From IMG/VR virus record IMGVR_UViG_3300044723_003767, positions 1 to 25,510 of that record: DNA of 25,510 nt. One strand, 5' to 3'. Of the stretch, positions 1 through 18,849 are shown piece after piece. Position 1 is the first letter of the stretch. Each line of letters starts with the position of its first letter. Under the pieces are notes generated by a model. That model was not told the origin of the DNA. It made no database searches and saw nothing but the letters and a program-made list of their open reading frames with translations. The DNA comes from a virus. Taxonomy: Duplodnaviria; Caudoviricetes. The position numbers were made by a program, and so were the translations under genes.

Positions 1-2
1 CT

Positions 3-2206: not shown

Positions 2207-2221
2207 GAGATCAGCACCGCT

Positions 2222-3208: not shown

Positions 3209-3227
3209 CTTTAAGAGGTAATAAAAA

Positions 3228-4199
3228 ATGGGCGTATCAGCTAATACTGTTGAAACCTATGATAGCTCAGTCATCCGTGAAGATTTACAAGATGCTCTGA
3301 TTTCTATCTCTCCAACCGAAACACCTTTCATGTCTGCTATTGGCCGAAGAAATGTTGCCAATACTTATTTTGAGTGGGGTGTTGTATCTTTAACTGCCGC
3401 CGATAGCTCTAACCGAGTTATTGAAGGCGAAGCCGCTCCAGGTAATGACGCATTAACTGCTGCTGTACGTCAGGGCAACTATACTCAGATTTCTGATAAA
3501 GTTGTTGAAGTATCTGACACTGCTGAAGCTGTTAATGGCGCAGGCAACGAGCAGACTATTGCTAAACAGATCGCTTACAAGCTGAAAGAGCTTAAACGCG
3601 ATATGGAAACCATGCTTACAGCTAACGTAGCTGCTTCTGCTGGTGCTTCTGGAACTGCTCGTCAGACTGCTGGACTTCCAGCTTTCTTGCGCACTAATGC
3701 TAGTAGAGCTGGTGATGGTGCTGATGGGACTACTTCTGGTTCTGGTGATTCTGGATATGTTGATGCTGCTGCTACCGATGGTACACAGCGTGACGTAACT
3801 GAGGACCTGTTGAAATCTGTTATTGCCCAGTGCTGGGATGCAGGTGCAGAGCCTTCAGTTGTTATCTGCGGATCAGGCGTTAAGCAGGAAATCTCTACTT
3901 TCACTGGTAATGCTACTAAGTACAAAGATATCACTGACAAAACTTTGTCAGCCGCTATTGATGTATATGTAAGTGACTTCGGTGAGCTAACTATCGTTCC
4001 AGATCGTTTTTCTCGCGGTCGCGATTGTTTAGTTCTTGACCCGAACTATGCTCGTGTAGCTTATCTGAAACCTACTACTCAGAAACCACTTGCTCGCACT
4101 GGTCACAGTGAGCGCAGACTGATTTCTGTAGAGTATGGCTTACAGATAGATAACGAAGCAGCACATGGTATCGTTGCTGACGTTAACACTAGCTACTAA
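3228..4199 (+). CDS. Major capsid protein (DUF5309/SU10-type)
   Basis: REDL..ISPTETPF, NYTQI, ELKRDME and YVSDFG motifs. RBS AAGAGG. Terminator downstream. Confidence 0.93.
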   Translation: MGVSANTVETYDSSVIREDLQDALISISPTETPFMSAIGRRNVANTYFEWGVVSLTAADSSNRVIEGEAAPGNDALTAAVRQGNYTQISDKVVEVSDTAEAVNGAGNEQTIAKQIAYKLKELKRDMETMLTANVAASAGASGTARQTAGLPAFLRTNASRAGDGADGTTSGSGDSGYVDAAATDGTQRDVTEDLLKSVIAQCWDAGAEPSVVICGSGVKQEISTFTGNATKYKDITDKTLSAAIDVYVSDFGELTIVPDRFSRGRDCLVLDPNYARVAYLKPTTQKPLARTGHSERRLISVEYGLQIDNEAAHGIVADVNTSY

Positions 4200-4217
4200 T
4201 CATAGCTAACTAATGAT

Positions 4218-4244
4218 GGGGAGCTTTGGCTCCCCTGATTTTTT
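4218..4244 (+). terminator. Intrinsic terminator after capsid gene
   Basis: GGGGAGC-TTTG-GCTCCCC stem followed by TGATTTTTT. Confidence 0.85.
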
Positions 4245-4253
4245 GGAGATTAA

Positions 4254-4544
4254 ATGAAAGACTCAATAATCAAAGAAAAAATGCAAGAGGAAGATGGGAA
4301 GCTTCATATCGTAAGACAGCAGGATGTCTCAGAGATTTTAAAAATGACAAAGCATCTTCGGGATGTATCTCCATCAAGAAAGGGTGATGCAAACTGGAGG
4401 TTAGCAGGAAAAATACCATTAGTTATTGCTGAACAGTGGTCAAGAGAGTGTAAAGCTGGCATTGGCACACAAGAGTTTGCCGCATATGTTAAGAAGAAAT
4501 TACAGGATAGCGATTGGGCTTATTTGCGCGTTAGGGGTTACTAG
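4254..4544 (+). CDS. Hypothetical phage protein (post-capsid)
   Basis: 96 aa, RBS GGAG, WRLAGKIPLVIAEQW motif of the type commonly seen just after this capsid family. Confidence 0.8.
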   Translation: MKDSIIKEKMQEEDGKLHIVRQQDVSEILKMTKHLRDVSPSRKGDANWRLAGKIPLVIAEQWSRECKAGIGTQEFAAYVKKKLQDSDWAYLRVRGY

Positions 4545-5118
4545 CCTATTTGCGCAAACTCAGACAGGTGATTTGAATACTAATAATGTCAACTCAACTG
4601 TCAATAGCGAAAATCCAGACAATTCTGTTGTAAATAACTTCAATGGTGCTGGCTCTGCTTCTAGGGTAACACCAGTGCCATCGGCCATTACGCCAAGCTA
4701 TATTTTCAACGGAAGCGATAGCTGCTTGATAGGAACGGGCGCAGGGATACAGCTAGACGTACTAGGCTTCAGCATTGGCGGCTATAAGCAAGATGATGAG
4801 TGTAACCGAAGGCGTGACGCTAGAGCTTTAAACGACTTAGGTATGCAGATAGCAGCAATAAGCCGTTTATGCCAATCAGATGAGAATTGGACTGCAATGT
4901 TCAAAGCAGGAACTTATTGCCCTGTTATGGTAAGAGGAAGCCTGATGGTAGGCAGGCAAGCGTATTTTGCAATGAGGCGTGACCCAGAATTATTGATACC
5001 GAACTATCGGCAAGACAGAGAGTTTTATGATGCCGTACTTGGCATAGGAGTTGAAGATGAAGAAAGCACTAACGACACTCGCAGTATCTCTGAGCGTTTC
5101 AGGACAAGCATACGCTGA
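4486..5118 (+). CDS. Putative exported protein with four cysteines
   Basis: Start re-assigned to ATG 4486, giving a Sec-type signal MLRRNYRIAIGLICALGVTSLFA|Q. N-rich linker, then DSCL/DECN/LCQ/YCP. Confidence 0.78.
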   Translation: MLRRNYRIAIGLICALGVTSLFAQTQTGDLNTNNVNSTVNSENPDNSVVNNFNGAGSASRVTPVPSAITPSYIFNGSDSCLIGTGAGIQLDVLGFSIGGYKQDDECNRRRDARALNDLGMQIAAISRLCQSDENWTAMFKAGTYCPVMVRGSLMVGRQAYFAMRRDPELLIPNYRQDREFYDAVLGIGVEDEESTNDTRSISERFRTSIR

Positions 5119-5824
5119 TGAAATCTCAGACCTTGTCAATGCGAGCAACTCGCTCATTACCACGATTGATAATGGACAGTATGCTGTGTCTGGTCTTGCA
5201 TACTATGCTGGTATTGGTGGGATTGCTGAGTCTAATACGATTGACTCCGCTATTATATCGCAGGCTCAGATGGATGCTTATAATACTGCACTGGCAGATG
5301 TCCAGGCGGCCACCTATTATAATGCGCAGATGTTTTTTGAAGACCAAGCGGATATTGCGCTTGAACAGATGAGCTTGGCTGTTGACGACTTTGTAGATGC
5401 GACCAGCGCGATGTCTCAGGTCATTACTGTTTTCGATATGGCATCAAATGCTACCGATACAGATACACAACTTGCCTTGCAGTCTTATGTAACTGATAAC
5501 GCCCTGTCCATTACTCAGGGGCAGGTATTGGAATACAACGATTCACTTGAAAGTGTACAGACCTACTCACAGATGGCTGCTGCTTTTGTTCAGGCAAGTC
5601 AGAATGATTTTATTACCCAGACTGTTGACCAGCAGAGTCAAGACTTCAATGTGTCTTTGTTTGAGACAACCGCCACTTATACGCAATCCACTGATCACAT
5701 GATGCTGACTTGGGCGCAGACAAATGAGTCTATGGGTTTTATGAATTTCTTCCAAAACGACATGAAATCAGCTCTGGATGTGATGGGCGTAGGTCAAAGT
5801 ATTTACGAAGGTCAGAAATTGTAA
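5051..5824 (+). CDS. Putative exported acidic helical protein
   Basis: Signal peptide MKKALTTLAVSLSVSGQAYA|D (A-x-A site). Mature region is D/Q/A/T rich and nearly lacks K/R. Confidence 0.8.
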   Translation: MKMKKALTTLAVSLSVSGQAYADEISDLVNASNSLITTIDNGQYAVSGLAYYAGIGGIAESNTIDSAIISQAQMDAYNTALADVQAATYYNAQMFFEDQADIALEQMSLAVDDFVDATSAMSQVITVFDMASNATDTDTQLALQSYVTDNALSITQGQVLEYNDSLESVQTYSQMAAAFVQASQNDFITQTVDQQSQDFNVSLFETTATYTQSTDHMMLTWAQTNESMGFMNFFQNDMKSALDVMGVGQSIYEGQKL

Positions 5825-6375
5825 TGCTGGATGAGGCTGAAGTCAGTGTTGGTGGCTTCAAGCTCAAGGGTGCTTGGATTATTGTTGCTTTATCTATCCT
5901 AGCACCTGTCGCTGGCGGTATCTGGACTGCTGCCGAGTTCTTTGGTCGCATCGATTCGCTGGAAGGCTCTGTATCAGAATTTACCATTCCTGACATTTCT
6001 CCGTTGCAAGAACAACTCTCTGTTATGCGCTCAGAGCTTGATACAGTGCGCTCAGAGGTAGGCGGTACAGGAGTACGTCTTGACACCAGAATCGCTGTTA
6101 TTGAGGAACAGATGGACTCACAAGATGTATCCCAGCTACAAGGCAGATTAGCTGAACTTGCTACCAACCTTCAGACCATTATGAATCAGCAACAACAACT
6201 ACTAGATTTGCGAGATAGGGTAGAAGCTGCCGAGCGTATAGTGCTTGAAAATCAACGACTTTCAGAGGATACTTTGGATTCCATTCAAGAATTTGAACAG
6301 GATGTTGACCGCTTTGCCCAAGAAGTAGAAGATTTATGGGAAGCATTTGACGCGGTATCCAATCCACTGAGATGA
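5824..6375 (+). CDS. Membrane-anchored coiled-coil protein
   Basis: One N-terminal TM segment (AWIIVALSILAPVAGGIW) then heptad-rich helix. TAATG coupling. Confidence 0.8.
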   Translation: MLDEAEVSVGGFKLKGAWIIVALSILAPVAGGIWTAAEFFGRIDSLEGSVSEFTIPDISPLQEQLSVMRSELDTVRSEVGGTGVRLDTRIAVIEEQMDSQDVSQLQGRLAELATNLQTIMNQQQQLLDLRDRVEAAERIVLENQRLSEDTLDSIQEFEQDVDRFAQEVEDLWEAFDAVSNPLR

Positions 6376-6385
6376 GAGTAAAAGC

Positions 6386-7645
6386 ATGACACAACTACCG
6401 ACAAAAAACACTTGGGATTGGCTTTCTGTTCCTGACGAAGCTGAAGAAATATTTGTCAATTATCCCACTCGCTGGTATTGGGTGAAAAAAAACCAAGAAA
6501 GAATCAAGAAAGGCATTTCCATGTCTGAGATGGCTCAATCTCATAATATTAATATGCGCTCCATGCAAAGGCAGCTTGCCTTCTCGAAAGAGATGCTTCT
6601 CAAGCATGGAATTGACTGCACAATTTCAGAGCCAATGTATAATGCTGTACCTGCTCCACATTACCTTAAAGGTCAGTCTACCTACTATAAAATAAATCCA
6701 GAGACAGGCGAGAAAACTGCCGTCGCTCAGTGGCACAAGACCGACATTGACCGAGAGCGCAAAGAGCAGCCGTTTAAGGATTTTGTTGCTGACGCTGTTC
6801 AAGGCATCAAGCCATTTCCATTAGTTAAGCAACCTAAGTCGGCTCCGAAAGATGCAGACAAATGCACTGTCTACACTCTGACGGATTTCCATCTGGGTAT
6901 GTATGCTTGGGCAGACGAAACTGGTAATGATTGGGACATGGAAATTGCTGAAAAGGTTATGCTTGGAGCTTTCCAAGATATGATGGATGGCTCGCCAGAT
7001 TCCGAGCAAGCTGTATTCGCCCAGCTAGGTGATTTGCTTCACTGGGATGGTATGCTTTTCCAGCCAGTTACAAGCTCTGGTAAAAATGTCCTTGATGCCG
7101 ACACAAGATTCCCAAGACTCGTTCAGTCAGCAATCAATTTGATGATAAAAGCTGTCGAGATGCTTCTTCACAAGCACAAGCAGGTTCATGTGATTATGGC
7201 TGAAGGAAATCACGACCAAGCAAGCTCAGTATGGCTCAGAGCTATCATGGGTGCAATGTTCGCTAAGAATAAAAGAGTCACTGTAGAGTTAAGCCCATTC
7301 CCTTACTACGTCTACAGGTTTGAGGACTGCTTTCTGGCTTGGCATCATGGTCACCTGACTCGCAAGCTGGAAGATTTGCCATTGAGATTTGCGACTGAAT
7401 GGCGTGATGATTTTGGAAAGTGTAAGTGGACATATATTCACACAGGACACCACCATACTAAGCAAGTCATCGAGAAGGCTGGGATATTCATTGAGCAGCA
7501 TCCTACTCTGTCTGCCAGAGATGCTTACGCAGCAAGAAATTTCATGATGGCGCAAAGAGGCGCATCTGCAATAACATACGCAAAAGGTGTAGGGGAATAC
7601 TCTCGCATTACAGTGCGCCCCAAAATTGATGTAAAAAGTGTATAA
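6386..7645 (+). CDS. Calcineurin-like metallophosphoesterase with N-terminal HTH-like region
   Basis: All five motifs present: DFH, GDLLH, GNHD, HHGH, GHHH. GISMSEMAQSHNINMRSMQRQL resembles an HTH. Confidence 0.85.
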   Translation: MTQLPTKNTWDWLSVPDEAEEIFVNYPTRWYWVKKNQERIKKGISMSEMAQSHNINMRSMQRQLAFSKEMLLKHGIDCTISEPMYNAVPAPHYLKGQSTYYKINPETGEKTAVAQWHKTDIDRERKEQPFKDFVADAVQGIKPFPLVKQPKSAPKDADKCTVYTLTDFHLGMYAWADETGNDWDMEIAEKVMLGAFQDMMDGSPDSEQAVFAQLGDLLHWDGMLFQPVTSSGKNVLDADTRFPRLVQSAINLMIKAVEMLLHKHKQVHVIMAEGNHDQASSVWLRAIMGAMFAKNKRVTVELSPFPYYVYRFEDCFLAWHHGHLTRKLEDLPLRFATEWRDDFGKCKWTYIHTGHHHTKQVIEKAGIFIEQHPTLSARDAYAARNFMMAQRGASAITYAKGVGEYSRITVRPKIDVKSV

Positions 7646-7652
7646 TACGCTC

Positions 7653-7934
7653 ATGGCTAAAGACACAAGATTAGAGCGGAACAACCTTGCAGGCTTCAAC
7701 AAGCCCAAAAGAACACCGAATCACCCAACTAAAAGTCATGTGGTGTTAGCCAAAGAAGGCGATCAGACTAAGCTTATTCGTTTCGGCCAGCAAGGTGTAT
7801 CTGGATCGCCTGCCCGTAAAGGTGAGAGCAGTGCAAATGCGGCCAGACGTAAATCTTTTAAGGCTCGCCATGCTAAAAATATTGCTAAAGGCAAGATGAG
7901 TGCAGCATATTGGGCTAACAAGGTGAAATGGTAA
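7653..7934 (+). CDS. Small basic phage protein (IRFGQQG / SFKARH / SAAYWA family)
   Basis: K/R-rich 93 aa. ATG 7653 preferred over GTG 7638. TATAAT at 7641-7646 lies just upstream. Confidence 0.8.
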   Translation: MAKDTRLERNNLAGFNKPKRTPNHPTKSHVVLAKEGDQTKLIRFGQQGVSGSPARKGESSANAARRKSFKARHAKNIAKGKMSAAYWANKVKW

Positions 7935-8101
7935 TGCCAGGTAAAGGTTTGTACGCAAATATTAACGCAAAGCGAAAAAGAATAACTTCTCAGAAAGCTC
8001 GCGGCGCAAAGAAAGTTGAAAGAATGAGAAGCCCCGGCAGCAAAGGCGCACCAACTGCCTCAGCTTTTCGCAAAGCTAAAAAGACTGCCAAGAAAAAATA
8101 G
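7934..8101 (+). CDS. Small highly basic protein (55 aa, not in ORF track)
   Basis: MPGKGLYANINAKRKRITSQKARGAKKVERMRSPGSKGAPTASAFRKAKKTAKKK. TAATG coupling. Confidence 0.8.
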   Translation: MPGKGLYANINAKRKRITSQKARGAKKVERMRSPGSKGAPTASAFRKAKKTAKKK

Positions 8102-8102
8102 C

Positions 8103-8276
8103 ATGAACAACGAGCAGAAAATAGAAATGCTCATGAGTATATGCGCTTACACTGGTGGCGAATGGACACCAGAAGATTGCTATGAATTTTATTGCTATAT
8201 CTATGACGAGCTTGAAGAACAAAAACCTAAACCAGACATAAGAGTAATTGAAAGTGGACCCACAGACACTCATTAA
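8103..8276 (+). CDS. Small acidic hypothetical protein (57 aa, not in ORF track)
   Basis: MNNEQKIEMLMSICAYTGGEWTPEDCYEFYCYIYDELEEQKPKPDIRVIESGPTDTH fills the gap between its neighbours. Confidence 0.65.
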   Translation: MNNEQKIEMLMSICAYTGGEWTPEDCYEFYCYIYDELEEQKPKPDIRVIESGPTDTH

Positions 8277-8466
8277 CTTTGCATTTAGTATTATCGCCGC
8301 TGGTTGCGGCTGGATCATCAAATCTATCTACGATGCGATGAAGTCTCTGGAAAAAGAGGTCCACATAGAATACGTCAGGAAAGATGATTTCCGAGAGGAC
8401 ATGAAGGAAGTAAAAGAGATGCTAAATGCCATCTTCAAACGCTTAGATAATAAGGCGGATAAATGA
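8254..8466 (+). CDS. Single-TM holin-like/lysis-associated protein
   Basis: N-terminal TM plus charged helix (YVRKDDFREDM...RLDNKADK). GTG start assumed. Heads the lysis cassette. Confidence 0.65.
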   Translation: MDPQTLINFAFSIIAAGCGWIIKSIYDAMKSLEKEVHIEYVRKDDFREDMKEVKEMLNAIFKRLDNKADK

Positions 8467-8576
8467 AAAAGCTTGGATACGCTATCACAATATTTCTTTG
8501 CAAATTAACTGACAAGCAAGCTGGCTATTTGTTCACTGCAATAGCAGCTCTCATCATTGGATTAGGTATTTTATGA
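8463..8576 (+). CDS. 37-aa membrane peptide (not in ORF track)
   Basis: MKKLGYAITIFLCKLTDKQAGYLFTAIAALIIGLGIL. ATGA overlaps at both ends. Confidence 0.7.
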   Translation: MKKLGYAITIFLCKLTDKQAGYLFTAIAALIIGLGIL

Positions 8577-9052
8577 AATTCTCTGCAATAAAAGGTCTTG
8601 TTGGTGCTGTTGCTCCCACTCTCGGTGCTGCTTTGGGCGGACCAGTAGGCGGTGCTGCAATGCAAGTTGTTTCTCAGGTTCTAGGATGCAAGCCAGATGA
8701 GCGCAGCGTAGAGCAGGCTATATCTCAAGCAAGTGCAGAGGACTTGGCAAAGATTCGTGAGGCAGAGCTTGAATTTGAGGCTAAGATGCAGCAGATGGAA
8801 GTAGATGTTTTTGCGCTCGAAACTCAAGACCGCCAATCTGCACGATCTCACTTCGCAAAGGATTGGACCGCAAGAGCTTTGGCAATTTCATTGATGCTTC
8901 TATTTGCAACATATATCATTCTGGTTACTGTTTTGCCCAACGATCTAATCGGCAATGAGGCCACGATAAATCTGATATTAGGAAGCATAACCGGAAGCTT
9001 CTCGACAGTGGTTGCATTTTATTTTGGCAGTTCGCAGAAACAAGATGACTGA
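8573..9052 (+). CDS. Holin (3TM/GTA-type)
   Basis: VAPTLGAALGGPVGG N-terminus, DRQSAR motif, two C-terminal TMs ending FYFGSS, adjacent to lysozyme. Confidence 0.8.
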   Translation: MKFSAIKGLVGAVAPTLGAALGGPVGGAAMQVVSQVLGCKPDERSVEQAISQASAEDLAKIREAELEFEAKMQQMEVDVFALETQDRQSARSHFAKDWTARALAISLMLLFATYIILVTVLPNDLIGNEATINLILGSITGSFSTVVAFYFGSSQKQDD

Positions 9053-9479
9053 TAATATCGTAAAACTCCTGCGCCATCACGAAGGCGTAAAAGCTCATGC
9101 GTACAAGTGTACTGCCAACAAGATAACTGTCGGCGTTGGTCGCAATATTGATCCTGAAGGCGGCTTAGGGCTTTTTGACGATGAGATAGACTATATGCTG
9201 ACCAATGACATTAATAGAGTCATAAAGGAGCTAGGAGAGGCTTTTCCTTGGTTTTCAGGGCTTGATGAAGCTAGAAGGGATGCCATGATAGATATCTGCT
9301 TTAACTTAGGTATGCCGAGGCTTAAAGGCTTTGCAAAAGCTCTATCTGCTATGGCAAGTGAAGATTACGAAATTGCGGCGTATGAGTTTTCAGACTCAGC
9401 TTGGTTCAAGCAAGTCGGTAATAGGGCGCAGACCATTGTTGATATGATCCGCTTTGGTAAGTACCCAGACCTACCTTGA
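9045..9479 (+). CDS. Endolysin, GH24 (T4-like) lysozyme
   Basis: HEG..AYKC....TVGVGRN catalytic region, FNLG and QVGNRA motifs. ATG 9045 preferred. Confidence 0.9.
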   Translation: MTDNIVKLLRHHEGVKAHAYKCTANKITVGVGRNIDPEGGLGLFDDEIDYMLTNDINRVIKELGEAFPWFSGLDEARRDAMIDICFNLGMPRLKGFAKALSAMASEDYEIAAYEFSDSAWFKQVGNRAQTIVDMIRFGKYPDLP

Positions 9480-9650
9480 TTCTAACTCTGAGGCTACCTT
9501 AGATCGCACATGCGCGATTTCAACTAAGACCCTGACTAAATCATCATCAATATCTTTTAGCTTTCGCCTCTCAATTCTTTTTAAGCCAAAGTTAAAAAAG
9601 TCAGATGTCTTGTGTAGCGTTTCTTGAGCAAGCTTCCAGTTCAATTCCAT
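9471..9650 (-). CDS. Hypothetical protein
   Basis: MELNWKLAQE..., RBS GGAGG, last gene of the leftward operon. Confidence 0.6.
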   Translation of the reverse strand: MELNWKLAQETLHKTSDFFNFGLKRIERRKLKDIDDDLVRVLVEIAHVRSKVASELESR

Positions 9651-9855
9651 CTTGTGCCTCCTGTTCAATCAGCAATTCGATGTAGTGTTTTGCTTTCTCA
9701 AGGTCAATTATACCACCTTTTTGCCTGTATCGTGTTACGTATTTGATTACGTTGCCAGCACAGTAGTTTAAATTATTAGCCATTATGTATTCGATTGGCT
9801 GGATTTTGAGATGCTTATAATGATCTCCGCCAACCTGGTTATCCTTCGCTGACAC
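9601..9855 (-). CDS. DUF3310 (T7 gp1.7/SaV-like) protein
   Basis: QVGGDHY, IQPIEYI, GNVIKYVTR and DLEKAKHY motifs. GTG start after GGGAGAG. Confidence 0.88.
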   Translation of the reverse strand: MSAKDNQVGGDHYKHLKIQPIEYIMANNLNYCAGNVIKYVTRYRQKGGIIDLEKAKHYIELLIEQEAQDGIELEACSRNATQDI

Positions 9856-10006
9856 GTTTCTCTCTCCCAATTGCTTGATCAAAGTGGTAGCACTTGACGC
9901 AGTACCAACCTTTCCTGACAGCTACTCCTTCCTCGTAATTTATTACTTCCTCTGCTGTTTTCTTACTGCATTTGTCGCAAACCTTAACCTCTAAAGTATC
10001 TTTCAT
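9839..10006 (-). CDS. Small Zn-ribbon protein
   Basis: CDKC...WYCVKC. Overlaps both neighbours. Confidence 0.7.
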   Translation of the reverse strand: MKDTLEVKVCDKCSKKTAEEVINYEEGVAVRKGWYCVKCYHFDQAIGREKRVSEG

Positions 10007-10550
10007 AAATCCTCTTTTTCCTTGCAAATATTGTTTTGATCCGCTTGAGATATTCTATCTCGTGAGTGTGCGGCTGGGTTTGGCTTTCCAACCACAAGAC
10101 CTTTTCCTCACCAATCATTTCAATTAGATGTGCGCGGTAGGGTATCAGATTTCCTGACTTCATAGTGTTGCATTGTGCGCAACTGGCATGGACATTGTAA
10201 GTGTTAAAAGTAACTGCTCGATTGACGCTTGGGCGGTAGTGTGATGCGTGTCTTTGATGTGATCCATCATCAGGCTTTCCACACGATACACATGGCTTAC
10301 CCTTATCCCTTATCCGAATATACCCATTAAAGGCTGTCTGAGCCTCTCTAAGCCAATCTGAGCGACTTTTTAACTTTTCTTTTATCTCTTTTGTTTCTCG
10401 CTTATACGCTTTCTTAACAGCTTCTTTTCCGCTATCAGATTTGGCCCATTGAAGCAGATGGTCCATGCTACAGAATGCTTTTAGCTGCCCCATGACTGCT
10501 TCTTGCTCTGGAACTTTAGTCTTGCAAAGATAGCATCTCCTGGTACGCAT
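9984..10550 (-). CDS. ninG: NinG/Rap-family recombination endonuclease
   Basis: N-terminal CxxC..FCS, AQTAFNGYIRIRD, PCVSCG, HASHY, NVHASCAQCN..SGN. Confidence 0.92.
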   Translation of the reverse strand: MRTRRCYLCKTKVPEQEAVMGQLKAFCSMDHLLQWAKSDSGKEAVKKAYKRETKEIKEKLKSRSDWLREAQTAFNGYIRIRDKGKPCVSCGKPDDGSHQRHASHYRPSVNRAVTFNTYNVHASCAQCNTMKSGNLIPYRAHLIEMIGEEKVLWLESQTQPHTHEIEYLKRIKTIFARKKRIYERYFRG

Positions 10551-10923
10551 TACCCTCTGTCTCCAGACACATCTAGGCTTTTTCCCCTGAGAAGAGCTAA
10601 CCTGCTGGGGTTATGCTCCAATCACCTGACCTAAGTCAAAACGCCCTTCGGCGTGGTACTCATTCCCGATCCACAAAGATGAACCGACCCTGTACTGCTC
10701 AATCCAGCATAGCTCACACCCTGCCAACCACGTTGCTTCTCAGGTTCTCGTTGACAAGCCTAGTCAGAGCGAGAATTTATGGGTGCTTGCCTGTCGCATT
10801 TCTGCCGCTATCTTTAAAGTCTATAGCTAGACATTAGCCGTGAGGAAGTCAGGCTTTGCCACACTTTTCTTGGTGAGTTGCTAATCGTTGAGGATTGCTG
10901 AAAATATCACTAACTCCCAAGAG
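10551..10923 (-). ncRNA. Putative large structured RNA / long 5' leader of ninG operon
   Basis: No credible ORF. Nested helices 10586-10594/10736-10744, 10594-10599/10710-10715, 10603-10608/10704-10709, 10745-10750/10770-10775, plus several hairpins. G-U pairing favours the minus strand. Confidence 0.65.
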
Positions 10924-10929
10924 GCACTT

Positions 10930-10980
10930 ATCATACTGAAATATTACAAAAAAATAAAATATTTTTTTTGCTTTGAAAAA
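10930..10980 (-). promoter_or_regulatory. Putative leftward promoter
   Basis: TATGAT (10935-10930), weak TTTATT 17 bp upstream, A/T tracts resembling an UP element. Confidence 0.45.
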
Positions 10981-10997
10981 ATACCCGTTAAAATAAT

Positions 10998-11026
10998 TTG
11001 CGGAACAGTCTGTGTTAGTGCATACT
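10998..11026 (+). promoter_or_regulatory. Putative sigma70 promoter for the small RNA
   Basis: TTGCGG-17-CATACT. Confidence 0.55.
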
Positions 11027-11032
11027 TTGATT

Positions 11033-11109
11033 TCCATGTTCTCCCTTAGCATGGCTTTGTCTCCAACAAAGTAAAGCCCTTGTTAGCCTGAACTAGCAGG
11101 GGCTTTTTT
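11033..11109 (+). ncRNA. Putative small regulatory RNA with two anti-SD (CUCC) loops
   Basis: Three consecutive hairpins: CCATG-TTCTCCCTTAG-CATGG, CTTTGT-CTCCA-ACAAAG, and a terminator. Confidence 0.7.
11073..11109 (+). terminator. Intrinsic terminator
   Basis: AAAGCCCTTGTTAG-CCTGAA-CTAGCAGGGGCTTT with G-U pairs on the + strand, ending in T6. Confidence 0.85.
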
Positions 11110-11113
11110 AATC

Positions 11114-11155
11114 CAATCAAAAAAGTTTGCAATCTTAATCGAATTAGTTTACGCT
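11114..11155 (+). promoter_or_regulatory. Early promoter with two overlapping operator-like palindromes
   Basis: TTGCAA(11127)-17-TACGCT(11150). CAATC-N6-GTTTG and TAATC-N6-GTTTA. Confidence 0.7.
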
Positions 11156-11186
11156 TGCATCTTAACTAATAAAACTGGAGACAAAG

Positions 11187-11768
11187 ATGAAAACTAGCGA
11201 ATCAATCGCTGCGCTCGCAGCAGCACTATGTAAAGCACAATCAGAGATGGGCGGAGCTGCAAAGTCAGCAGACAACCCGTTCTTCAAATCAAAATATGCG
11301 GACCTTAGTTCTGTTGTCCAAGCAGTTAAGCAGCCTTTTGCTGACAATGGCTTGAGCTATGTCCAGTTCCCCATTTCAACTCAGTCAGCTATCGGTGTGG
11401 TCACAAGACTGATGCACGAAAGTGGCGAGTGGATGGAGCAGGATTATTACTTGCCATTGCAGAAGCTCGACCCACAGGCAGCAGGTTCAGCAATCACTTA
11501 CGCAAGACGCTATTCACTTCAAGCTGTTGCTGGAATCCCTGCTGAAGATGATGATGGTGAAAGCTCAATGTTGCGTGGCAATCCTAAAACAATCACTGGT
11601 GTGCAGGTAGAATCTTTATACGATGCGCTGGAAGAATCGGATTCAGATTTGGAAAAGTTTCTGAAGGCATTTAAAAAACAATCGCTTGAAGAATTCACCG
11701 AACCTGAGTACATCCGCGCTCTACAGATGATTGAAATGAAGAAGGGGAAATCTAATGAGAATATCTAA
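11187..11768 (+). CDS. erf: ERF-family single-strand annealing protein
   Basis: NPFFKSKYADL, HESGEW, PQAAGSAITYARRYSL and EDDDG signatures. Confidence 0.95.
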   Translation: MKTSESIAALAAALCKAQSEMGGAAKSADNPFFKSKYADLSSVVQAVKQPFADNGLSYVQFPISTQSAIGVVTRLMHESGEWMEQDYYLPLQKLDPQAAGSAITYARRYSLQAVAGIPAEDDDGESSMLRGNPKTITGVQVESLYDALEESDSDLEKFLKAFKKQSLEEFTEPEYIRALQMIEMKKGKSNENI

Positions 11769-12366
11769 ATTTGAGCAACGAACCCCAGAATGGTTTGCAG
11801 ATAGGATTGGCGTACCTTCTGCATCACAGTTCCATAAAATAATCACACCAACAGGTCAGGCAAGCAAGCAGGTTGATGGCTATATCAATGAGCTGGTAGC
11901 CGAGAAGGTTACGCAGCAGCAAGCCTATGTGCATGAGACTGAGGCAATGAAGCGTGGTACTGAGCTGGAGCCAATGGCAAGGGAGAACTTTGAATTTATC
12001 ACTGACTATTCTGTCAGCGAGATTGGATTCTGCAAGCACGATAAGCTGGAAATCGGCTGTTCGCCAGATGGCGTGATTGACCTTCCAGACGGAAAGGTAG
12101 CTGTCTTAGAAATAAAATGCCCGATGGCGAACACGATGGTTGAGTATCTTCGAGATGGAATCCTGCCGCCAAAGTATAAGCCTCAAGTGCAGGGCCAGCT
12201 ATGGATTACCGAAGCTGACCATGCGTATTTTTTTGCATTTCATCCTGAATTTGTTGGATTGCTGATTAAGGTGGAGCGCGATCAAGATTTTATTCAAAAA
12301 CTAAGCACACTATCCTACGAGATGATCCAAAAAATTGAAAAGCTCGCAAAAGAGTACAAAGTATGA
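11755..12366 (+). CDS. YqaJ/lambda-exonuclease family nuclease
   Basis: EQRTPEW, SAS, RGTELEP.AR, CSPDG, EIKCP, Y.PQVQGQL. Confidence 0.93.
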   Translation: MRISKFEQRTPEWFADRIGVPSASQFHKIITPTGQASKQVDGYINELVAEKVTQQQAYVHETEAMKRGTELEPMARENFEFITDYSVSEIGFCKHDKLEIGCSPDGVIDLPDGKVAVLEIKCPMANTMVEYLRDGILPPKYKPQVQGQLWITEADHAYFFAFHPEFVGLLIKVERDQDFIQKLSTLSYEMIQKIEKLAKEYKV

Positions 12367-12569
12367 GCTACATGACTATATTCAGCATGAGGTACAAAGA
12401 CAAGTATGGCAAAGAGCTTGAGAAAGAGCCTTTAGAATTACAAAACATATACAAAACAGGATATGTCGATGCGATAGAAATTTTTCAAAACCAGCTAAAC
12501 CTGATTTTGCAAGATGTACAAAACTCACCAACTTACACAATAGAGGAAAATAAAAATGACGAATTATGA
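12363..12569 (+). CDS. Hypothetical protein
   Basis: 68 aa, ATGA coupling. Confidence 0.6.
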   Translation: MSYMTIFSMRYKDKYGKELEKEPLELQNIYKTGYVDAIEIFQNQLNLILQDVQNSPTYTIEENKNDEL

Positions 12570-12801
12570 TAATAACAATCGCGGAGCTATCTGGAAAAAT
12601 GACCGCAAAACAACAGACAAGCACCCAGACTTTACTGGAGCAATAACAGTTGATGGTAAAGATTATTGGCTATCAGCTTGGCGTGGCGATAAAGAAAACC
12701 CCAAAGCACCAACGCTATCATTTAGTGTCCAGGCAAAAGATGTGCCTAAACAGCAGCCAACTCCAAACTTGAACGAGGATTTTGATGATGCCCCATTCTA
12801 A
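12556..12801 (+). CDS. Small single-stranded DNA-binding-like protein
   Basis: GAIWKN..K..HPDFTG...YWLSAW core and an SSB-type acidic tail DFDDAPF. Sits next to ERF and the exonuclease. Confidence 0.75.
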   Translation: MTNYDNNNRGAIWKNDRKTTDKHPDFTGAITVDGKDYWLSAWRGDKENPKAPTLSFSVQAKDVPKQQPTPNLNEDFDDAPF

Positions 12802-13000
12802 TGTAGACTTTGGTAAATGTGTAAGGGCTGCACAGGCTATGCGCAGATATACTAACAAGCAGATAGGTGATGGACTAGGGACAACACCCCAGCAAGTCTC
12901 TAGGTTTAGGAATAATACCGACTGCAAAATAAATGTTGCGATCAGCTTGGCTCATTTTTTTGAGCTATCTTTACAAGAGATGCTGAACCTTGACAAATAA
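12785..13000 (+). CDS. XRE/Cro-type helix-turn-helix regulator
   Basis: TNKQIGDGLGTTPQQVSRF...ISLAHFFELSLQEM. Start is 12785 or 12788. Confidence 0.85.
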   Translation: MMPHSNVDFGKCVRAAQAMRRYTNKQIGDGLGTTPQQVSRFRNNTDCKINVAISLAHFFELSLQEMLNLDK

Positions 13001-13199
13001 AAAACAAAAACATCTGGACCAGCTTGCTGCCGACATTGCGGCCTATCTCAAAAAGGGCGGGAAGATTACTACCTTGCCTAGCGGGGAAACAGAGATGACT
13101 TGGCGGAGCAGGCTTAATCCAGATGCAACAAAAAATTCTGGAGATGAAGATGCAAACGTGGACAGTAAAAAACGAAGAAAGCCTAAACTTTCTGATTGA
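12990..13199 (+). CDS. SutA-like RNA-polymerase-binding domain protein
   Basis: KQKHLDQLAADIAAYLKKGGKITTL resembles the K.K....LA.....FL..GGK(V/I) core of Pseudomonas SutA. Confidence 0.65.
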   Translation: MTNKKQKHLDQLAADIAAYLKKGGKITTLPSGETEMTWRSRLNPDATKNSGDEDANVDSKKRRKPKLSD

Positions 13200-13587
13200 C
13201 GCTTTGAAAGAGCAAAAGAAGCCATTTGTGGTTGAGCTTTTACCAGCTCACAGAACTATTCCGCAAAATCGGTTGTTTTACTTGATATACGATATTATTG
13301 CAGAGCAGCTTTATGGTGGCGATGGGCATCATGCGAGGAACGAATGTAAGCTAACTATTGGTGTACCAATACTCCGCAGGGATAGCGAAAAATTCCAACA
13401 GACCTATGACCGACTTCTGAAGCCAGCAAGCTACGAGGACAAGCTTGCGATGATGGAATACGTTTCAATAAGCTCAATATTCGATAAAGCTCAAGGCACT
13501 GAGTACATAAAATCTATGTTCGACAAGTATGCTCAGAAAGGCGTTACTTGGTCTGAAATAATTATTGCTCAGGTTGGTATGCTATGA
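13150..13587 (+). CDS. NinB/Orf-like protein
   Basis: RTIPQNRLF motif, C-terminal YI.......A.KGV. Start chosen from GGAG spacing. Confidence 0.65.
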   Translation: MQTWTVKNEESLNFLIDALKEQKKPFVVELLPAHRTIPQNRLFYLIYDIIAEQLYGGDGHHARNECKLTIGVPILRRDSEKFQQTYDRLLKPASYEDKLAMMEYVSISSIFDKAQGTEYIKSMFDKYAQKGVTWSEIIIAQVGML

Positions 13588-15122
13588 AGCTTAGACCTCA
13601 CCAGGAAAAGGCTGTTGAGATGCTCAAGGCATCTTTCCAGTCTGGCCATAAACGCCCAATAGTTGCAGCTCCATGCGCATTCGGGAAAACGCATCTGGCC
13701 GCATACCTTATGAAAGGCTGTCAAGACAAGGGCAACCGAGGGCTTTTCATCTGCGACAGGATTAAGCTTGTGGACCAGACGCTTGATGCTTTTCGAGATT
13801 GGGACATCTGGACCGGAGTGTTGCAAAGTGATCACCCTGACACTGACTACGCTGCACCTATCCAAGTTGCTTCGGCTCAAACCCTTTCGATACGCATGAA
13901 AAATGGCTATGACCCTGACCCACAGCTAATCATTGTTGATGAATGCCACACAGTATATAAGGGTGTGCAGAAGATTCTTGACACATATCCACAAGCAAAG
14001 ATTATCGGATTATCGGCTACTCCATATAGTAAAGGCTTAGGGCTAACTTATGATGACCTATTAATTCCTGCCACTACAGAGGAGCTGCTTGAACAGGGAT
14101 ACCTTACCCCAATAACTTACTATGGCGGTAAGCACATCAATACGGCAGCTCTAAGGACAAGAAGTATCAAAACTGGTGGCTCTGACTTTGACCCCAAACA
14201 TCTGGAGAAGAGGACAAATGAAAACAAGGATATGCTGACAGGCTCAATCATTGAGAATTGGATAAAGTATGGAGAGAACCGCCAGACTATTGCTTTTTCT
14301 CCAAGTATCGCTCACTCGAAGTACCTTGTAAAAATGTTCAAGGCGAATGGCATACCTGCTGCACACATTGATGGATATACAGATATCTCTAGGAGGCTGA
14401 AACTTTATAAGCAGCATGATGAGGGCAAGATTAAAATATTGTCTTGCTCACAACTACTGACTGCCGGTTTCGATTCACCTACTACCTCATGCATGATCGA
14501 TTGCACTCCCACTTTTTCAAAAATTCAGTTCCAGCAACGCGCCGGGAGAATAATGCGCATAGCTCCTGGCAAAGAATACGCAGTATATCTAGATCATTCA
14601 GGAAATGTTGGGAAAAGGCATGGGCTGGTTGAATGGATGATACCAAGCGAGCTGAGTACCAATGAGAAGAAATTTGCTGAGAAGAATCAGCTAAAAGAGA
14701 AAAAAGAAAAAGAGCCTAACGAATGTCCAGAGTGCCACCGCATAATGACTGGGATTAAGTGTATATGCGGCTTTGAATTTGAAATCAAAAAAGAACTCAC
14801 CAGCACTCAAGAGATGCTTGTCAGGATAAGCGGAAAGAAGGCAACGCCAGAGGACAGGGAATATATGGGCAAGTTTTATTCTAGCCTTCTGAAGCTCAGC
14901 AGAGATTGGGGATTCAAGGATGGCTGGGCAGCTTGGAAGTACAAAGAAAGATTTGGGATATGGCCGAGATCAATTGACATCAATACCAGCCAACCAGTGC
15001 TGCCAGAAGCTAAAGCCTGGGCAGATGCTGCATTGATTAAATACGCAAAACGGAGAAAAGCCAATGATGACAACGAAGGAAAGATGGTGGAAGTGGCACA
15101 GGAAGAATCCTCACGTATATAA
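13584..15122 (+). CDS. Superfamily 2 (DExH) helicase with C-terminal Zn finger
   Basis: LRPHQ, APCAFGKT, DECH, SAT, GFD, QRAGRIMR, CPEC..CICG, GWA. Confidence 0.93.
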   Translation: MKLRPHQEKAVEMLKASFQSGHKRPIVAAPCAFGKTHLAAYLMKGCQDKGNRGLFICDRIKLVDQTLDAFRDWDIWTGVLQSDHPDTDYAAPIQVASAQTLSIRMKNGYDPDPQLIIVDECHTVYKGVQKILDTYPQAKIIGLSATPYSKGLGLTYDDLLIPATTEELLEQGYLTPITYYGGKHINTAALRTRSIKTGGSDFDPKHLEKRTNENKDMLTGSIIENWIKYGENRQTIAFSPSIAHSKYLVKMFKANGIPAAHIDGYTDISRRLKLYKQHDEGKIKILSCSQLLTAGFDSPTTSCMIDCTPTFSKIQFQQRAGRIMRIAPGKEYAVYLDHSGNVGKRHGLVEWMIPSELSTNEKKFAEKNQLKEKKEKEPNECPECHRIMTGIKCICGFEFEIKKELTSTQEMLVRISGKKATPEDREYMGKFYSSLLKLSRDWGFKDGWAAWKYKERFGIWPRSIDINTSQPVLPEAKAWADAALIKYAKRRKANDDNEGKMVEVAQEESSRI

Positions 15123-15342
15123 GCTGTTTGAGCGTTTTACCTTCCAAGCTATCAATCGAGGCCACAAGCACCTATCTGCCTGGCTAGTCATAAATCGTAT
15201 CAGATGGGAGACATCAATTGAGACTGAGGGCGATGATTTTAAAATATCCAACGACTTCATTGCTTATTATTCAAGACTTTTCATGCACTATCATCCTGAA
15301 TATCAAGGGTTTTTTCGGACCAAAGAACTAACACGAAAATAA
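15064..15342 (+). CDS. Conserved-looking phage hypothetical protein
   Basis: NPHVYKLF..NRIRW..FKISND..AYYSRLF..FF, aromatic-rich. Confidence 0.75.
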   Translation: MMTTKERWWKWHRKNPHVYKLFERFTFQAINRGHKHLSAWLVINRIRWETSIETEGDDFKISNDFIAYYSRLFMHYHPEYQGFFRTKELTRK

Positions 15343-15343
15343 T

Positions 15344-15389
15344 TAAACAAAAATGTTGACATAATGTGAATTATAAACGATAATGTTTA
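15344..15389 (+). promoter_or_regulatory. Near-consensus sigma70 promoter with two operator-like palindromes
   Basis: TTGACA(15356)-17-GATAAT(15379). TAAAC-N6-GTTGA and TAAAC-N6-GTTTA overlap -35 and -10. Confidence 0.85.
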
Positions 15390-15430
15390 CATGGTTGGCG
15401 AGGTGCTGACCCAAACTTGGAGATAAAGAC

Positions 15431-15727
15431 ATGAACGAACTTACTTACAACAGATCAGACTGGTCAGGTAGAGAAGAAACTGTAGTGATTAAAGCAAGAT
15501 CATTTAAAGTAAAAAATTCTGACTTCAACGGAACTTATAAAATAATTGAAGAAGATGGTGTTGGTTCTTACGCTAAAGTAACTGTTGCAGATGGCCAACA
15601 CGTTATTGATACCATAACTGTTTATAACATAGAAAATAATTGCTGGTACGCAGAGTTCTGCGATATATCCAGAGGGTCAAACAACCCAATCGTGACCGCT
15701 CTACAAACTATACATAACACTTACTAA
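15431..15727 (+). CDS. Hypothetical early protein
   Basis: 98 aa, RBS GGAG, first gene after the promoter. Confidence 0.75.
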   Translation: MNELTYNRSDWSGREETVVIKARSFKVKNSDFNGTYKIIEEDGVGSYAKVTVADGQHVIDTITVYNIENNCWYAEFCDISRGSNNPIVTALQTIHNTY

Positions 15728-15735
15728 CCAAACCA

Positions 15736-15749
15736 GCACAAGGATGTGC
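15736..15749 (+). promoter_or_regulatory. CsrA/RsmA-type binding hairpin
   Basis: GCACA-AGGA-TGTGC, intergenic, immediately before an RBS. Confidence 0.65.
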
Positions 15750-15764
15750 ATCAGGAGAGAGAAA

Positions 15765-15980
15765 ATGACACACCAAGAAATTAAAGAGATAGCATGTAAC
15801 AACGGAGATTTAACTATAGAGCAGTTAGTTAAAATCTCTAACCTCCCAGCAGCAGAAGTTTTAAGAGCTGTAGCTGGATCACCTTGGGGACAGTGGTTGA
15901 TCAATAACTATGTATGTTATGAGAGCGCACACATTGGCTTTGATGCTGAAGATTTTGACAACCCTTTGTTCGGGAGATAA
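15765..15980 (+). CDS. Hypothetical protein, possible HTH
   Basis: RBS AGGAG. LTIEQLVKISNLPAAEV. Confidence 0.65.
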   Translation: MTHQEIKEIACNNGDLTIEQLVKISNLPAAEVLRAVAGSPWGQWLINNYVCYESAHIGFDAEDFDNPLFGR

Positions 15981-15982
15981 AC

Positions 15983-16096
15983 ATGAAACTTACCAAAAAG
16001 CAAAAACACTATATATCAGAACTGGCATATGCTACTGGCAGCATAATAATGCTGACCGGAATAATTTTTTACACATTTATGGGATGGGTACTATGA
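15983..16096 (+). CDS. 37-aa single-TM peptide (not in ORF track)
   Basis: MKLTKKQKHYISELAYATGSIIMLTGIIFYTFMGWVL. RBS GGGAG. ATGA coupling to the next gene. Confidence 0.7.
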   Translation: MKLTKKQKHYISELAYATGSIIMLTGIIFYTFMGWVL

Positions 16097-16476
16097 GCTT
16101 AAAAAATATTTATGAAAATAATTTAAACGAATTTATCAGGTATGGTGAGTTCGACCCTAGCGACAAAGCGTTATTCTTGGTCTGGCAGCACCTGAAAAAT
16201 GAAATGGGTGCTGGTGATTTTTTGAGCGAGGTAATCAATGGCGATGACTTGCTGTCAGATGACTTGCTCAACTTCGTTGTTTTTAATAATCCCGGAGATC
16301 AGGGAAAGTTGAGATTGCAAGATGCATGTAACAGGTATGCCATGTATTTTGTTGAGCAAGATGCTGATATAATTTGGAGTATGTGGGATGGCACTAACAA
16401 GCCTGACCCGATGGATTTGGCAAAGGAAAGTAGATATATCGATGAAATTGCCGGCAGCTTGAAAGGAATTTTTTGA
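16093..16476 (+). CDS. Acidic hypothetical protein
   Basis: Start re-assigned to ATG 16093 (MSLKNIYE...) by ATGA overlap. Confidence 0.7.
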   Translation: MSLKNIYENNLNEFIRYGEFDPSDKALFLVWQHLKNEMGAGDFLSEVINGDDLLSDDLLNFVVFNNPGDQGKLRLQDACNRYAMYFVEQDADIIWSMWDGTNKPDPMDLAKESRYIDEIAGSLKGIF

Positions 16477-16496
16477 GAACTACTCCAAGTGGTAAA

Positions 16497-16514
16497 TGGG
16501 GCAAGGATGCTCCA
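16497..16514 (+). promoter_or_regulatory. Second CsrA/RsmA-type hairpin
   Basis: TGGGGCA-AGGA-TGCTCCA, intergenic. Confidence 0.6.
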
Positions 16515-16537
16515 GATTATCAACAAAAGGTGACAAC

Positions 16538-16633
16538 ATGAAAAACAAAACACCTGAAGAACAAAAATTTGAAGCATGGGCAGGAATGGTTATTTTGCTA
16601 TCAATGATAATTATGATTTTGTTATCTATATGA
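16538..16633 (+). CDS. 31-aa single-TM peptide (not in ORF track)
   Basis: MKNKTPEEQKFEAWAGMVILLSMIIMILLSI. RBS AGGTGA. ATGA coupling. Confidence 0.65.
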   Translation: MKNKTPEEQKFEAWAGMVILLSMIIMILLSI

Positions 16634-16890
16634 ATTCATTTATTTGCACAAGCTGCCATGAAGAAAAACCAGGCAGTGAACGCTGGCGGCATAACCAGCT
16701 AAAATGTATTGACTGCAAACTAGCTTACCAGAAAGAGCAGAATCAAAAGGCATACAAGCGCAGAGGTCATGAAAACGAGCCAGCTTGGGATGTGTCTTTA
16801 TCACAAAGAACCAGGAGCGAGTATGAGCAAAGGCAGCTTGCAAAGGCCAAGACAGGTATCATCTCAGCAATTCTCAGAATCATGGGATAA
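16630..16890 (+). CDS. Zn-finger protein
   Basis: CTSC..EK....CIDCK. Start at the ATGA overlap. Confidence 0.65.
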   Translation: MNSFICTSCHEEKPGSERWRHNQLKCIDCKLAYQKEQNQKAYKRRGHENEPAWDVSLSQRTRSEYEQRQLAKAKTGIISAILRIMG

Positions 16891-16978
16891 GATTTTCAAA
16901 TCTAAACAAAAGAGCGTAGAATCCAGTAATGGACATCGCACCCCTGACAAGAGAAGAAATAAAATACCTTCTGAATGA
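16823..16978 (+). CDS. Small phage protein (MSKGS..RP...WDKIF type)
   Basis: RBS AGGAG before ATG 16823. N-terminal motif is familiar from small phage ORFs. Confidence 0.6.
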   Translation: MSKGSLQRPRQVSSQQFSESWDKIFKSKQKSVESSNGHRTPDKRRNKIPSE

Positions 16979-17111
16979 GAATGGCTATCCTACAGAAAAT
17001 CCAGTCCTGTTTGAGCAAATAGTTAAGCTGATTCGTATTTTGGAAACACAAGGGTACGGCATAAGCTTTAGCGATGTAGAAAACGAAAATTCAATTGTGA
17101 GGCGAAGATGA
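16929..17111 (+). CDS. Hypothetical protein
   Basis: 60 aa, ATGA overlap with terS. Confidence 0.55.
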   Translation: MDIAPLTREEIKYLLNENGYPTENPVLFEQIVKLIRILETQGYGISFSDVENENSIVRRR

Positions 17112-17539
17112 CTTACACAGCAGATAAATTACCAAGAGGCAGACCCAGCAGCTATCTAGAAGAATACGTTGAACAAGCATTTGACTACGCTGACGGCGGA
17201 TGGATGAAGCTTGCAGATGCTATTCCTACACTAGATAGGCTTGCTATCCTGTTAGGCACGAATGTAAACACTATGAGTGATTGGGCAAACAAACACGATG
17301 ATTTCTCTTCAGCATTAGAGAGAGTCAAAACCCAGCAGAAGCTGGCCCTTATGAATGGCTCCTTGAACGGCGAGTACAACGCCCAGATTGCCAAGATGTT
17401 GTTTAGTGCTAATCATGGTATGTCTGAGAAAACAGAGCAGCACATGACCTCTGATGGCTCACTAGCACCAACTCATGTAGTCCTCCAGGGCGTAGCAGCA
17501 CATCACGAAGATGACGAACCAGAAATCGGCATCCATTAA
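17108..17539 (+). CDS. terS: Terminase small subunit
   Basis: GRPSSY, IPT...LA..LG HTH, W...H.DFS.AL, LSANHG-like end. Precedes terL. Confidence 0.88.
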   Translation: MTYTADKLPRGRPSSYLEEYVEQAFDYADGGWMKLADAIPTLDRLAILLGTNVNTMSDWANKHDDFSSALERVKTQQKLALMNGSLNGEYNAQIAKMLFSANHGMSEKTEQHMTSDGSLAPTHVVLQGVAAHHEDDEPEIGIH

Positions 17540-18797: not shown

Positions 18798-18813
18798 GAA
18801 AACCTGCCAACTA

Positions 18814-18845
18814 TGCTATAATCGCCTCATGTGATTTACGAGGCG
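18814..18845 (+). promoter_or_regulatory. Extended -10 promoter with RBS-sequestering hairpin
   Basis: TGCTATAAT 18814-18822. CGCCTC(18823-28) pairs with GAGGCG(18840-45). Confidence 0.65.
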
Positions 18846-18849
18846 CAAG

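Follow-up and report, generated by a model that had tools for sequence, protein, structure and literature searches.

The stretch of DNA analysed here (the window, 25,510 nucleotides of the tailed-phage record IMGVR_UViG_3300044723_003767 in IMG/VR) carries on its minus strand a member of a real, uncatalogued and highly structured family of non-coding phage RNAs, which we designate family A. Its conserved core, as defined by an alignment of 46 sequences, comprises positions 10566..10864, with GUGUG at the 5' end and the second strand of the closing helix at the 3' end. From the genome context we predict, with about even confidence, that this RNA is a ColE1-like, R-loop-forming primer and origin RNA that replaces an initiator protein. 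Three functions had been offered in the initial annotation, i.e., a replication primer or origin RNA, a ribozyme or an antitermination leader, and the first of them appears to fit the genome context best. It is favoured because the link to a helicase is tight and because initiators remained undetected in the phage clade concerned.

Family members, non-coding nature and strand

Compensatory changes were already present among four close loci that carry ninG. A wider search with ninG yielded one distant copy (L034), in which the element lies downstream of this gene, so that a reading as ninG leader is ruled out. The location upstream of ninG, as initially described, is correct for the window but incidental: the gene following the element varies between members and can be the helicase, a small Cys-rich protein or others.

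Members were gathered by patterns of shared motifs and checked with iterated nhmmer profiles. For the final pattern, the confirmed loci were 59 of 60 from viruses, 70 of 90 from metagenomes and 1 of 17 from GTDB, with the single GTDB member (L407) being a phage-like contig within a MAG. The 165 full-length matches represent 78 distinct sequences and 51 representatives, a collection by pattern that favours members keeping the 5' motif; most of them were found by a pattern holding GTGG. For the alignment 46 of the 51 representatives were used (five were omitted as close to others); their mean identity is 61% and the core measures 294-339 nt. Some of the member records have names marked marine or TARA.

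No reading frame is conserved among the relatives. No PHROG matches a 74-codon open reading frame on the plus strand of the window (10613-10837). Interrupted frames are seen in 45 of the 46 relatives in sense and in 42 in antisense direction, and the core lengths fall into all three classes modulo 3. The helices had been given in plus-strand coordinates, and here a correction is needed: the RNA lies on the minus strand, like ninG. Over 60 pairs and 46 rows the minus strand shows 146 G·U versus 22 A·C cells, and one U·G pair is invariant. These G·U pairs together with GNRA and UNCG/GNRA loops identify the molecule as RNA of the minus strand. By contrast, we regard it as very improbable that the structure acts as single-stranded DNA, as a priming signal of the G4-ori kind or similar to ssi that is recognised by the phage zinc finger protein (see below) or by host primase. 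The replication context would fit such a signal, and RNA and single-stranded DNA are described as not separable by covariation alone (PMC5737381), but a GNRA loop in 46 of 46 relatives, a UNCG/GNRA loop in 33 of 46 and the G·U pairing just mentioned are habits of RNA; the RNA pieces that cover the element in one sequencing run point weakly in the same direction.

The initial annotation had not recognised the element as tRNA, tmRNA or intron. In the window no Rfam model matched at its gathering score and nothing credible was found on the element at E values up to 10. Rfam also gave no match for the related element types B-F described below (one locus per type scanned). A blastn search with the window element and L034 against 50,697 phage records returned short chance matches only, and the element had no match among 72,556 plasmids.

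Fold of the element

The initial annotation described a highly structured non-coding RNA of about 370 nt with a possible pseudoknot, and covariation across the family strongly supports both; the conserved core is shorter, with the boundaries given above, and more knotted than was claimed. All five helices named at that time, including the pairing of a hairpin loop with 10573-80, are exact Watson-Crick complements in the window. In the following, all features lie on the minus strand and are described in window coordinates.

The core starts with a pentamer that reads GUGUG in 44 of 46 relatives, GUGCG in one and GUGGG in one. It is closed by a helix of 10857-10860 with 10566-10569, which is paired in 87% of cases and shows little covariation. 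The subsequent 5' hairpin (10836..10855) is 98.9% paired with two-sided changes in three of four pairs, and its loop CUC (10842-10844) can pair with a distal GAG(U) at 10658-10661, a conserved if unproven contact (91.3% paired, no compensatory change). The hairpin formerly assigned to 10819-32 is one stem of an H-type pseudoknot (10807..10832): the stem 10830-32/10819-21 (74% paired in an imperfect part of the alignment) is combined with the pairing of loop 10824-27 with 10807-10 (96.7%), and columns 74-92 of this knot lie at or above all 25 null maxima in the G-test. It is followed by a GNRA-capped hairpin (10793..10806) with two-sided changes in all four pairs and by a long-range helix, 10781-86/10716-21 (10716..10786), that crosses the central helix. 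In 45 of the 46 relatives this crossing helix is 5 bp long or longer; its mean length is 5.7 bp versus 3.6 with shuffled partners.

For the stem proposed at 10745-50/10770-75, family-wide covariation supports the hairpin 10747-55/10763-73 (10747..10773). Its loop 10756-61 pairs with the 3' segment 10575-80, and five of these six pseudoknot pairs show two-sided changes. The central helix (10587..10743), annotated as 10586-94/10736-44 and supported by covariation as 10737-43/10587-93, encloses the 3' domain and is 97.2% paired with six of seven pairs changing on both sides. Within this domain the hairpins expected at 10627-38, 10641-54 and ~10666-10687 are all supported by covariation as 10626-39, 10640-54 and 10670-83 (10626..10683); they are arranged around a conserved GAGUACC, and it is the middle one that bears the UNCG/GNRA loop. 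A crossing extension of two pairs occurs at 10655-56/10585-86, and in its pair 10656/10585 a C-G in 35 relatives is replaced by U-A in 11. For the helices 10594-99/10710-15 and 10603-08/10704-09, which fall in length-variable and poorly aligned columns, the evidence is their complementarity in the window. Besides the paired regions, 19 unpaired positions are invariant in the 46 relatives.

Altogether 60 pairs in 14 helices were named, pseudoknots included, with 94.6% of cells paired. Of these pairs 40 show two-sided changes, whereas shuffling gave 25.4 and sliding of the partners no more than 21; the comparison favours the structure as it was derived from the same alignment, from which the pseudoknots were read directly. 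RNAalifold gave 41 nested pairs, 28 of them with two-sided changes among the 46 relatives. In an APC G-test against a tree-simulated null, 7 of 52,975 column pairs were at or above all 25 null maxima, two pseudoknot pairs included; few pass since strong conservation or misalignment keeps most of the other true pairs below this level.

Folding energy had been put forward in the initial annotation as a possible ground for refutation, and indeed the 373-nt stretch folds no better than shuffles (z -0.71 and -0.58 on the two strands). However, the folding program ignores pseudoknots, and the covariation outweighs this result; the segment 10585-10745 alone folds better than shuffles (z about -2.5). 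The same whole-region energy would be the argument for chance complementarity or an unrecognised small gene, an explanation to which we attach practically no probability and which is rejected by the excess of two-sided pairs over shuffled and slid partners and by the broken frames.

Two repeats within the fold suggest strand exchange or base triples. A triplet at 10622..10624 copies 10740-42 (identical in 32 of 46 relatives versus 8.6 in shuffles, with columns 164-341 above all null maxima) and may form a base triple or serve the central helix as another pairing partner. Moreover, a G-tract is present in two copies, namely copy 1 at 10687..10693 and copy 2 at 10584..10590, the latter being followed by an invariant AAA, with the core ending about 18 nt further on at its 3' side. 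They match in 5.98 of 7 letters versus 5.37 +/- 0.10 for shuffled partners, a comparison that ignores kinship. In 11 relatives copy 2 reads GAG, all of them with UC at the partner site, and five relatives have mismatched copies (CGG/CAG). The 3' half is G-rich in nine of nine elements (skew +0.19 to +0.30), which may merely reflect pairing with a C-richer 5' half.

The helicase and exchangeable element types

An SF2 helicase was found in 26 of 26 non-redundant family A loci with at least 4 kb of downstream sequence, in 25 of them on the same strand as the element. In the window this travelling partner of the RNA family is encoded at 13584..15122 on the plus strand (phrog_16, E 2e-88; ResIII + Helicase_C). 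When nine near-complete RNA-bearing genomes and the window are compared, the virion genes differ, and the helicase (9/10), an HTH protein (9/10), an exonuclease (8/10) and ERF (7/10) are found in most of them.

Many helicase loci lack family A, and clustering of their intergenic regions revealed further conserved elements of about 310-340 nt. Upstream sequence of at least 4.5 kb was available for 70 helicase loci. In 66 of these a single element was present, which belongs to type A in 28, D in 21, E in 8, F in 6 and B in 3 cases; the other four loci have none and are untyped, with an element possibly located elsewhere in their records. After de-duplication one element is present in 49 of 53, 37 of 41 and 28 of 32 loci, and two types were never found together; since types D, E and F were defined from the same loci these one-per-locus counts are partly circular, which does not apply to the exclusion of A. 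Structured and uncatalogued representatives from the same slot are the elements of type D (L577 7743-8098), type E (L590 2203-2522), type F (L579 4462-4810), type B (L538 4131-4447) and type C (L023 541-849). With the filter applied five covarying helices were obtained for type D and three for type E, and types F and B are based on four sequences each. The 3' core of family A is common to B and C, its 5' domain is common to some E elements, D and E have a common 3' domain and F shows no cross-match. The types are scattered over the helicase tree, which, with one of them per locus, fits an exchangeable function needed once per genome.

Among the untyped helicase loci, L550 (4622-4847) and L033 (4348-4858) have structured-looking gaps, and the one in L033 ends in a D/E-like 3' motif. 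The Pseudomonas phages PS-1 (L665 5380-5995) and YA3 (L668 5260-5990) have mutually similar gaps of 600-750 nt before the helicase that are hairpin-rich by eye and resemble family A at their 5' end; they have no profile match to the families and no Rfam match. The gap before the origin-binding gene of T5 gave no credible match to the family profiles.

Both the next gene and the orientation of the element relative to the helicase vary, as an origin would allow. They also bear on the possibility that the RNA is a cis-acting leader which, by changing from one pairing to another, regulates how the replication operon is read through or translated, like a put-like antiterminator or a translational switch, possibly by sensing the helicase or the zinc finger. 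We consider this unlikely. It could explain why an open reading frame with an RBS-like motif begins 26-57 nt past the last G-tract in 40 of 49 relatives examined, why element and helicase are on the same strand in almost all loci and why duplicated strands suggest alternative folds. However, there is no conserved next gene. Both in the window and in six loci of type D the element is directed away from the helicase, and the genes it leads in the window amount to only about 1.1 kb, after which a convergent lysis gene follows. Furthermore, known leaders of this kind need less fold than this element has, in which four to five helices cross and 19 unpaired bases are invariant. The fact that the 5' and 3' ends can pair and that an RBS is close behind in most members suits a compact RNA and a leader equally well.

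Initiators, primases and the zinc finger

RepL, lambda O and family A polymerase (not to be confused with the RNA family) were found in none of 31 clade records, 18 of which are at least 90% complete. Toprim_2 and Prim-Pol are missing from 30 clade records (47 records were searched), in which DnaB yielded sub-cut-off P-loop matches only. The result for initiators is based on the RepL and lambda O models plus a survey of open reading frames in nine genomes, and a small initiator of unrecognised type could escape Pfam searches. The initial annotation had seen neither initiator nor primase in the window; for initiators this can be extended to the clade within the reach of these models, but two of the 30 clade records, G014 and G021, contain a full Toprim primase (Toprim_3) together with a divergent family A RNA. 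A primase elsewhere had been named in the initial annotation as a finding that would weaken the replication idea, and these two records do so in part. None of the 26 non-redundant family loci has a G014-type primase. These two phages rule out that the RNA replaces a primase as a strict rule, and their complete primase is compatible with an initiator-like role.

The five cultured phages examined that have the nearest helicases (30-34% identity) each possess a primase-type gene of 280-330 aa adjoining the helicase, and in two of them a RepL-annotated gene is located directly upstream of it; none of the five has a family profile match. As RepL is found there in these two cultured relatives, the RNA apparently stands in the place of the initiator and not strictly in that of the primase.

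In six of nine near-complete genomes the helicase is followed by a CHC2 zinc finger protein of 127-141 aa without Toprim, and 20 of 26 loci contain it; the window has no such gene. The CHC2 family comprises 79 proteins of 77-247 aa. Stand-alone primase-type CHC2 zinc fingers such as L511 4334-4759 (minus strand) and its relatives have 127-150 aa and a conserved C-terminal part. This protein enters into the alternative that a free RNA works together with helicase and zinc finger as a ribonucleoprotein, or that it is a ribozyme, in order to carry or make the primer or to cut itself to a defined 3' end. A fold with closed ends and nested pseudoknots would suit this alternative, as would the probable base triples and the invariance of unpaired bases, and what the zinc finger lacks is exactly the catalytic Toprim part that is kept beside the same helicase in cultured relatives. 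On the other hand, 6 of the 26 loci, among them the window, lack the zinc finger, the core is not followed by a terminator and no Rfam ribozyme matches even at E up to 10. We see a role as free ribonucleoprotein or ribozyme as a minor possibility.

The locus in the window

In the gene map of the window the element is flanked by ninG on the minus strand and by an ERF-exonuclease-SSB-HTH-ninB-helicase arm on the plus strand. The ninG/Rap endonuclease gene (9984..10550, minus strand; phrog_171, E 8e-58) is the first gene after the RNA, and the genes for ERF, YqaJ-type exonuclease, SSB and HTH protein (11187..13000, plus strand; PHROG/Pfam matches) belong to the same replication/recombination module. 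The divergent arms are separated by an AT-rich tract (10936..11000, GC 0.33), a putative promoter region that is situated upstream and not downstream of the RNA. A weak candidate -10 hexamer, TATGAT at 10930..10935 (minus strand), lies 65 nt before the core and predicts, from sequence only, a start near 10923. A consensus scan of the window found no full promoter at 10930-10935, and a sigma-70 promoter within 130 nt of the element is not evident in the family (raw score of at least 9/12 in 4 of 49 flanks). In the window scan neither a plus-strand promoter or terminator within the element, which might indicate an antisense RNA, nor a terminator after the core was found. A minimum of the cumulative GC skew near 11,100-11,300 was set aside as a sign of an origin as it coincides with the switch of gene direction.

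Transcription of the element is weakly hinted by one estuarine RNA run (X1), in which two pieces of 151 nt cover 10586-10886 (depth 2) and five pieces lie on portal, scaffold and capsid genes; in this run most of window positions 1-20,000 are uncovered, which is silent on expression, and carry-over of DNA is possible.

Several other features of these loci were observed. At 11033-11110 (plus strand) the window contains a small RNA with three hairpins and a terminator at its end (z -4.56), which has anti-Shine-Dalgarno sequence in two loops. Its segment 11055-65 is exactly complementary to the ribosome site of ERF (11176-86) and, over part of its length, also to that of ninG (10558-66). It is kept with changes in L002-L004, L449 and L473, has weak Rfam matches to anti-hemB and similar sRNAs and is likely a translational repressor of early genes. 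The close relatives L002-L004 have an additional 80-codon open reading frame between RNA and ninG (L002 2790-3000) that is absent in the window and in L001, with the junction at a repeated GGAGACA ribosome site (window 10553-10563). In L002 ERF is replaced by a different annealing protein, and an HNH-like frame, as read from its sequence, is located between the annealing-protein and exonuclease genes (1050-1562). In the upstream flanks of family A members (120 nt) a palindrome of the type CACAA-N4-TTGTG (loose pattern) was found in 25 of 50 cases versus 0.008 expected per 140 nt; it is a candidate site of the phage HTH protein and was not seen in the flank of the window.

Comparison with known structured RNAs

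Group II introns start with the 5' motif GUGYG, which resembles the first pentamer of family A. Membership in this class is not supported, as Domains V and VI were not detected by Rfam and the flanking genes are whole and differ between members. Nor did the Rfam models of group I introns, RNase P, tmRNA and known self-cleaving ribozymes match the element.

The closest functional analogue may be RNA II of ColE1. This plasmid has no initiator of its own; instead, an RNA of 550 nt stays hybridised, RNase H cleaves it and Pol I uses it as primer (PMC5043065), and rG:dC pairing is reported as essential for the hybrid (PMC4412123). The role proposed here, a long non-coding primer that opens the origin without an element-encoded initiator, would be the same (PMC5043065). 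Possible further similarities are the repeated G-tracts with the last one near the 3' end, whose matching may also stem from RNA-RNA switching, and the G-rich 3' half; the ColE1 record has two G6 runs, at 928 and at 1175, of which the latter is soon followed by an A5 run. In contrast, the present RNA is shorter (about 310 nt versus about 550 nt), is phage-borne and tied to its own helicase and zinc finger, and no sign of an antisense RNA I was found in the scan of the window. Homology to RNA II is rejected, as there is no sequence or profile match in either direction: family profiles against the ColE1 record and ColE1 640-1200 against the members gave no match for A, B, D and E, and the best match of type F (E 0.36) lies outside RNA II.

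The RNA II of MRB plasmids and the motifs ARRPOF, GEBRO and PAGEV are similar in being structured RNAs of 220-470 nt that are linked with replication without a Rep protein (PMC3035462, PMC5737381), with the MRB elements also being marine. ARRPOF, GEBRO and PAGEV are plasmid motifs of 223-349 nt for which a role in replication was proposed (PMC5737381). Family A belongs to none of them, as it has no Rfam or plasmid match and those are elements of plasmids. In T4 R-loops prime replication and the helicase UvsW unwinds R-loops (PMC3016281), so that at oriF and oriG, too, a phage transcript primes the leading strand and an SF2 helicase acts on the R-loop. However, the T4 R-loop is independent of specific sequence (PMC3016281) and T4 encodes its own replisome, whereas the element described here is under strong structural selection. 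In density of helices and pseudoknots it is similar to ROOL, GOLLD, raiA, OLE and HEARO, of which ROOL and GOLLD occur in prophages (PMC5737381), but it has no Rfam match and its partner is a replication helicase instead of tRNAs or a nuclease.

No description of family A was found in the literature searched. The IMG/VR candidates of Fremin 2023 (PMC10690425) have 29-151 nt, and in those parts of the supplement that were searched no match to the family motifs occurs; a fragment may be listed in its alignment files.

Proposed function

According to the primer/origin reading the element would be transcribed by host RNA polymerase and the transcript would adopt the knotted shape demonstrated by covariation. 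In view of the matched repeats and the analogy with ColE1, the upstream G-tract could then pair with the template-strand C-tract of the downstream copy and thus keep the 3' end as an R-loop, or upstream segments might trap the displaced strand to the same effect. A host polymerase would use this 3' end, either after trimming or as it is, as leading-strand primer, the phages themselves showing no polymerase. The phage helicase, often with the lone primase zinc finger, may widen the opening and recruit the primase for the lagging strand. It has to be considered that an RNA-only switch or a triple helix explains the matched G-tracts equally well. Several points count against certainty about the primer/origin function: the ends are closed, an RBS is close by, two members occur together with a primase, and neither an antisense RNA nor a consensus promoter is evident.

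A more far-reaching and rather doubtful idea is that RNA, SF2 helicase and zinc-finger-only primase form one ribonucleoprotein primosome. In this complex the RNA would find the origin and supply or make the primer that the lost catalytic domain had made, with interchangeable folds used throughout the clade. If true, this would be categorically new, with RNA doing the jobs of proteins.

Large and heavily knotted bacterial RNAs are few, and ROOL, GOLLD, raiA and OLE are without settled function. Family A offers a sharp lead, as there is one element per genome beside one helicase, with the initiator undetected and mostly no primase catalytic domain. The trigger of the persistent hybrid at an origin has been called speculative (PMC5043065), and the five exchangeable types constitute a natural series for what keeps a transcript hybridised there. 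If the primer/origin reading holds, tailed phages would possess a structured-RNA origin, a mode described for plasmids (ColE1, MRB), and the replication of an uncultured aquatic phage clade would be explained.
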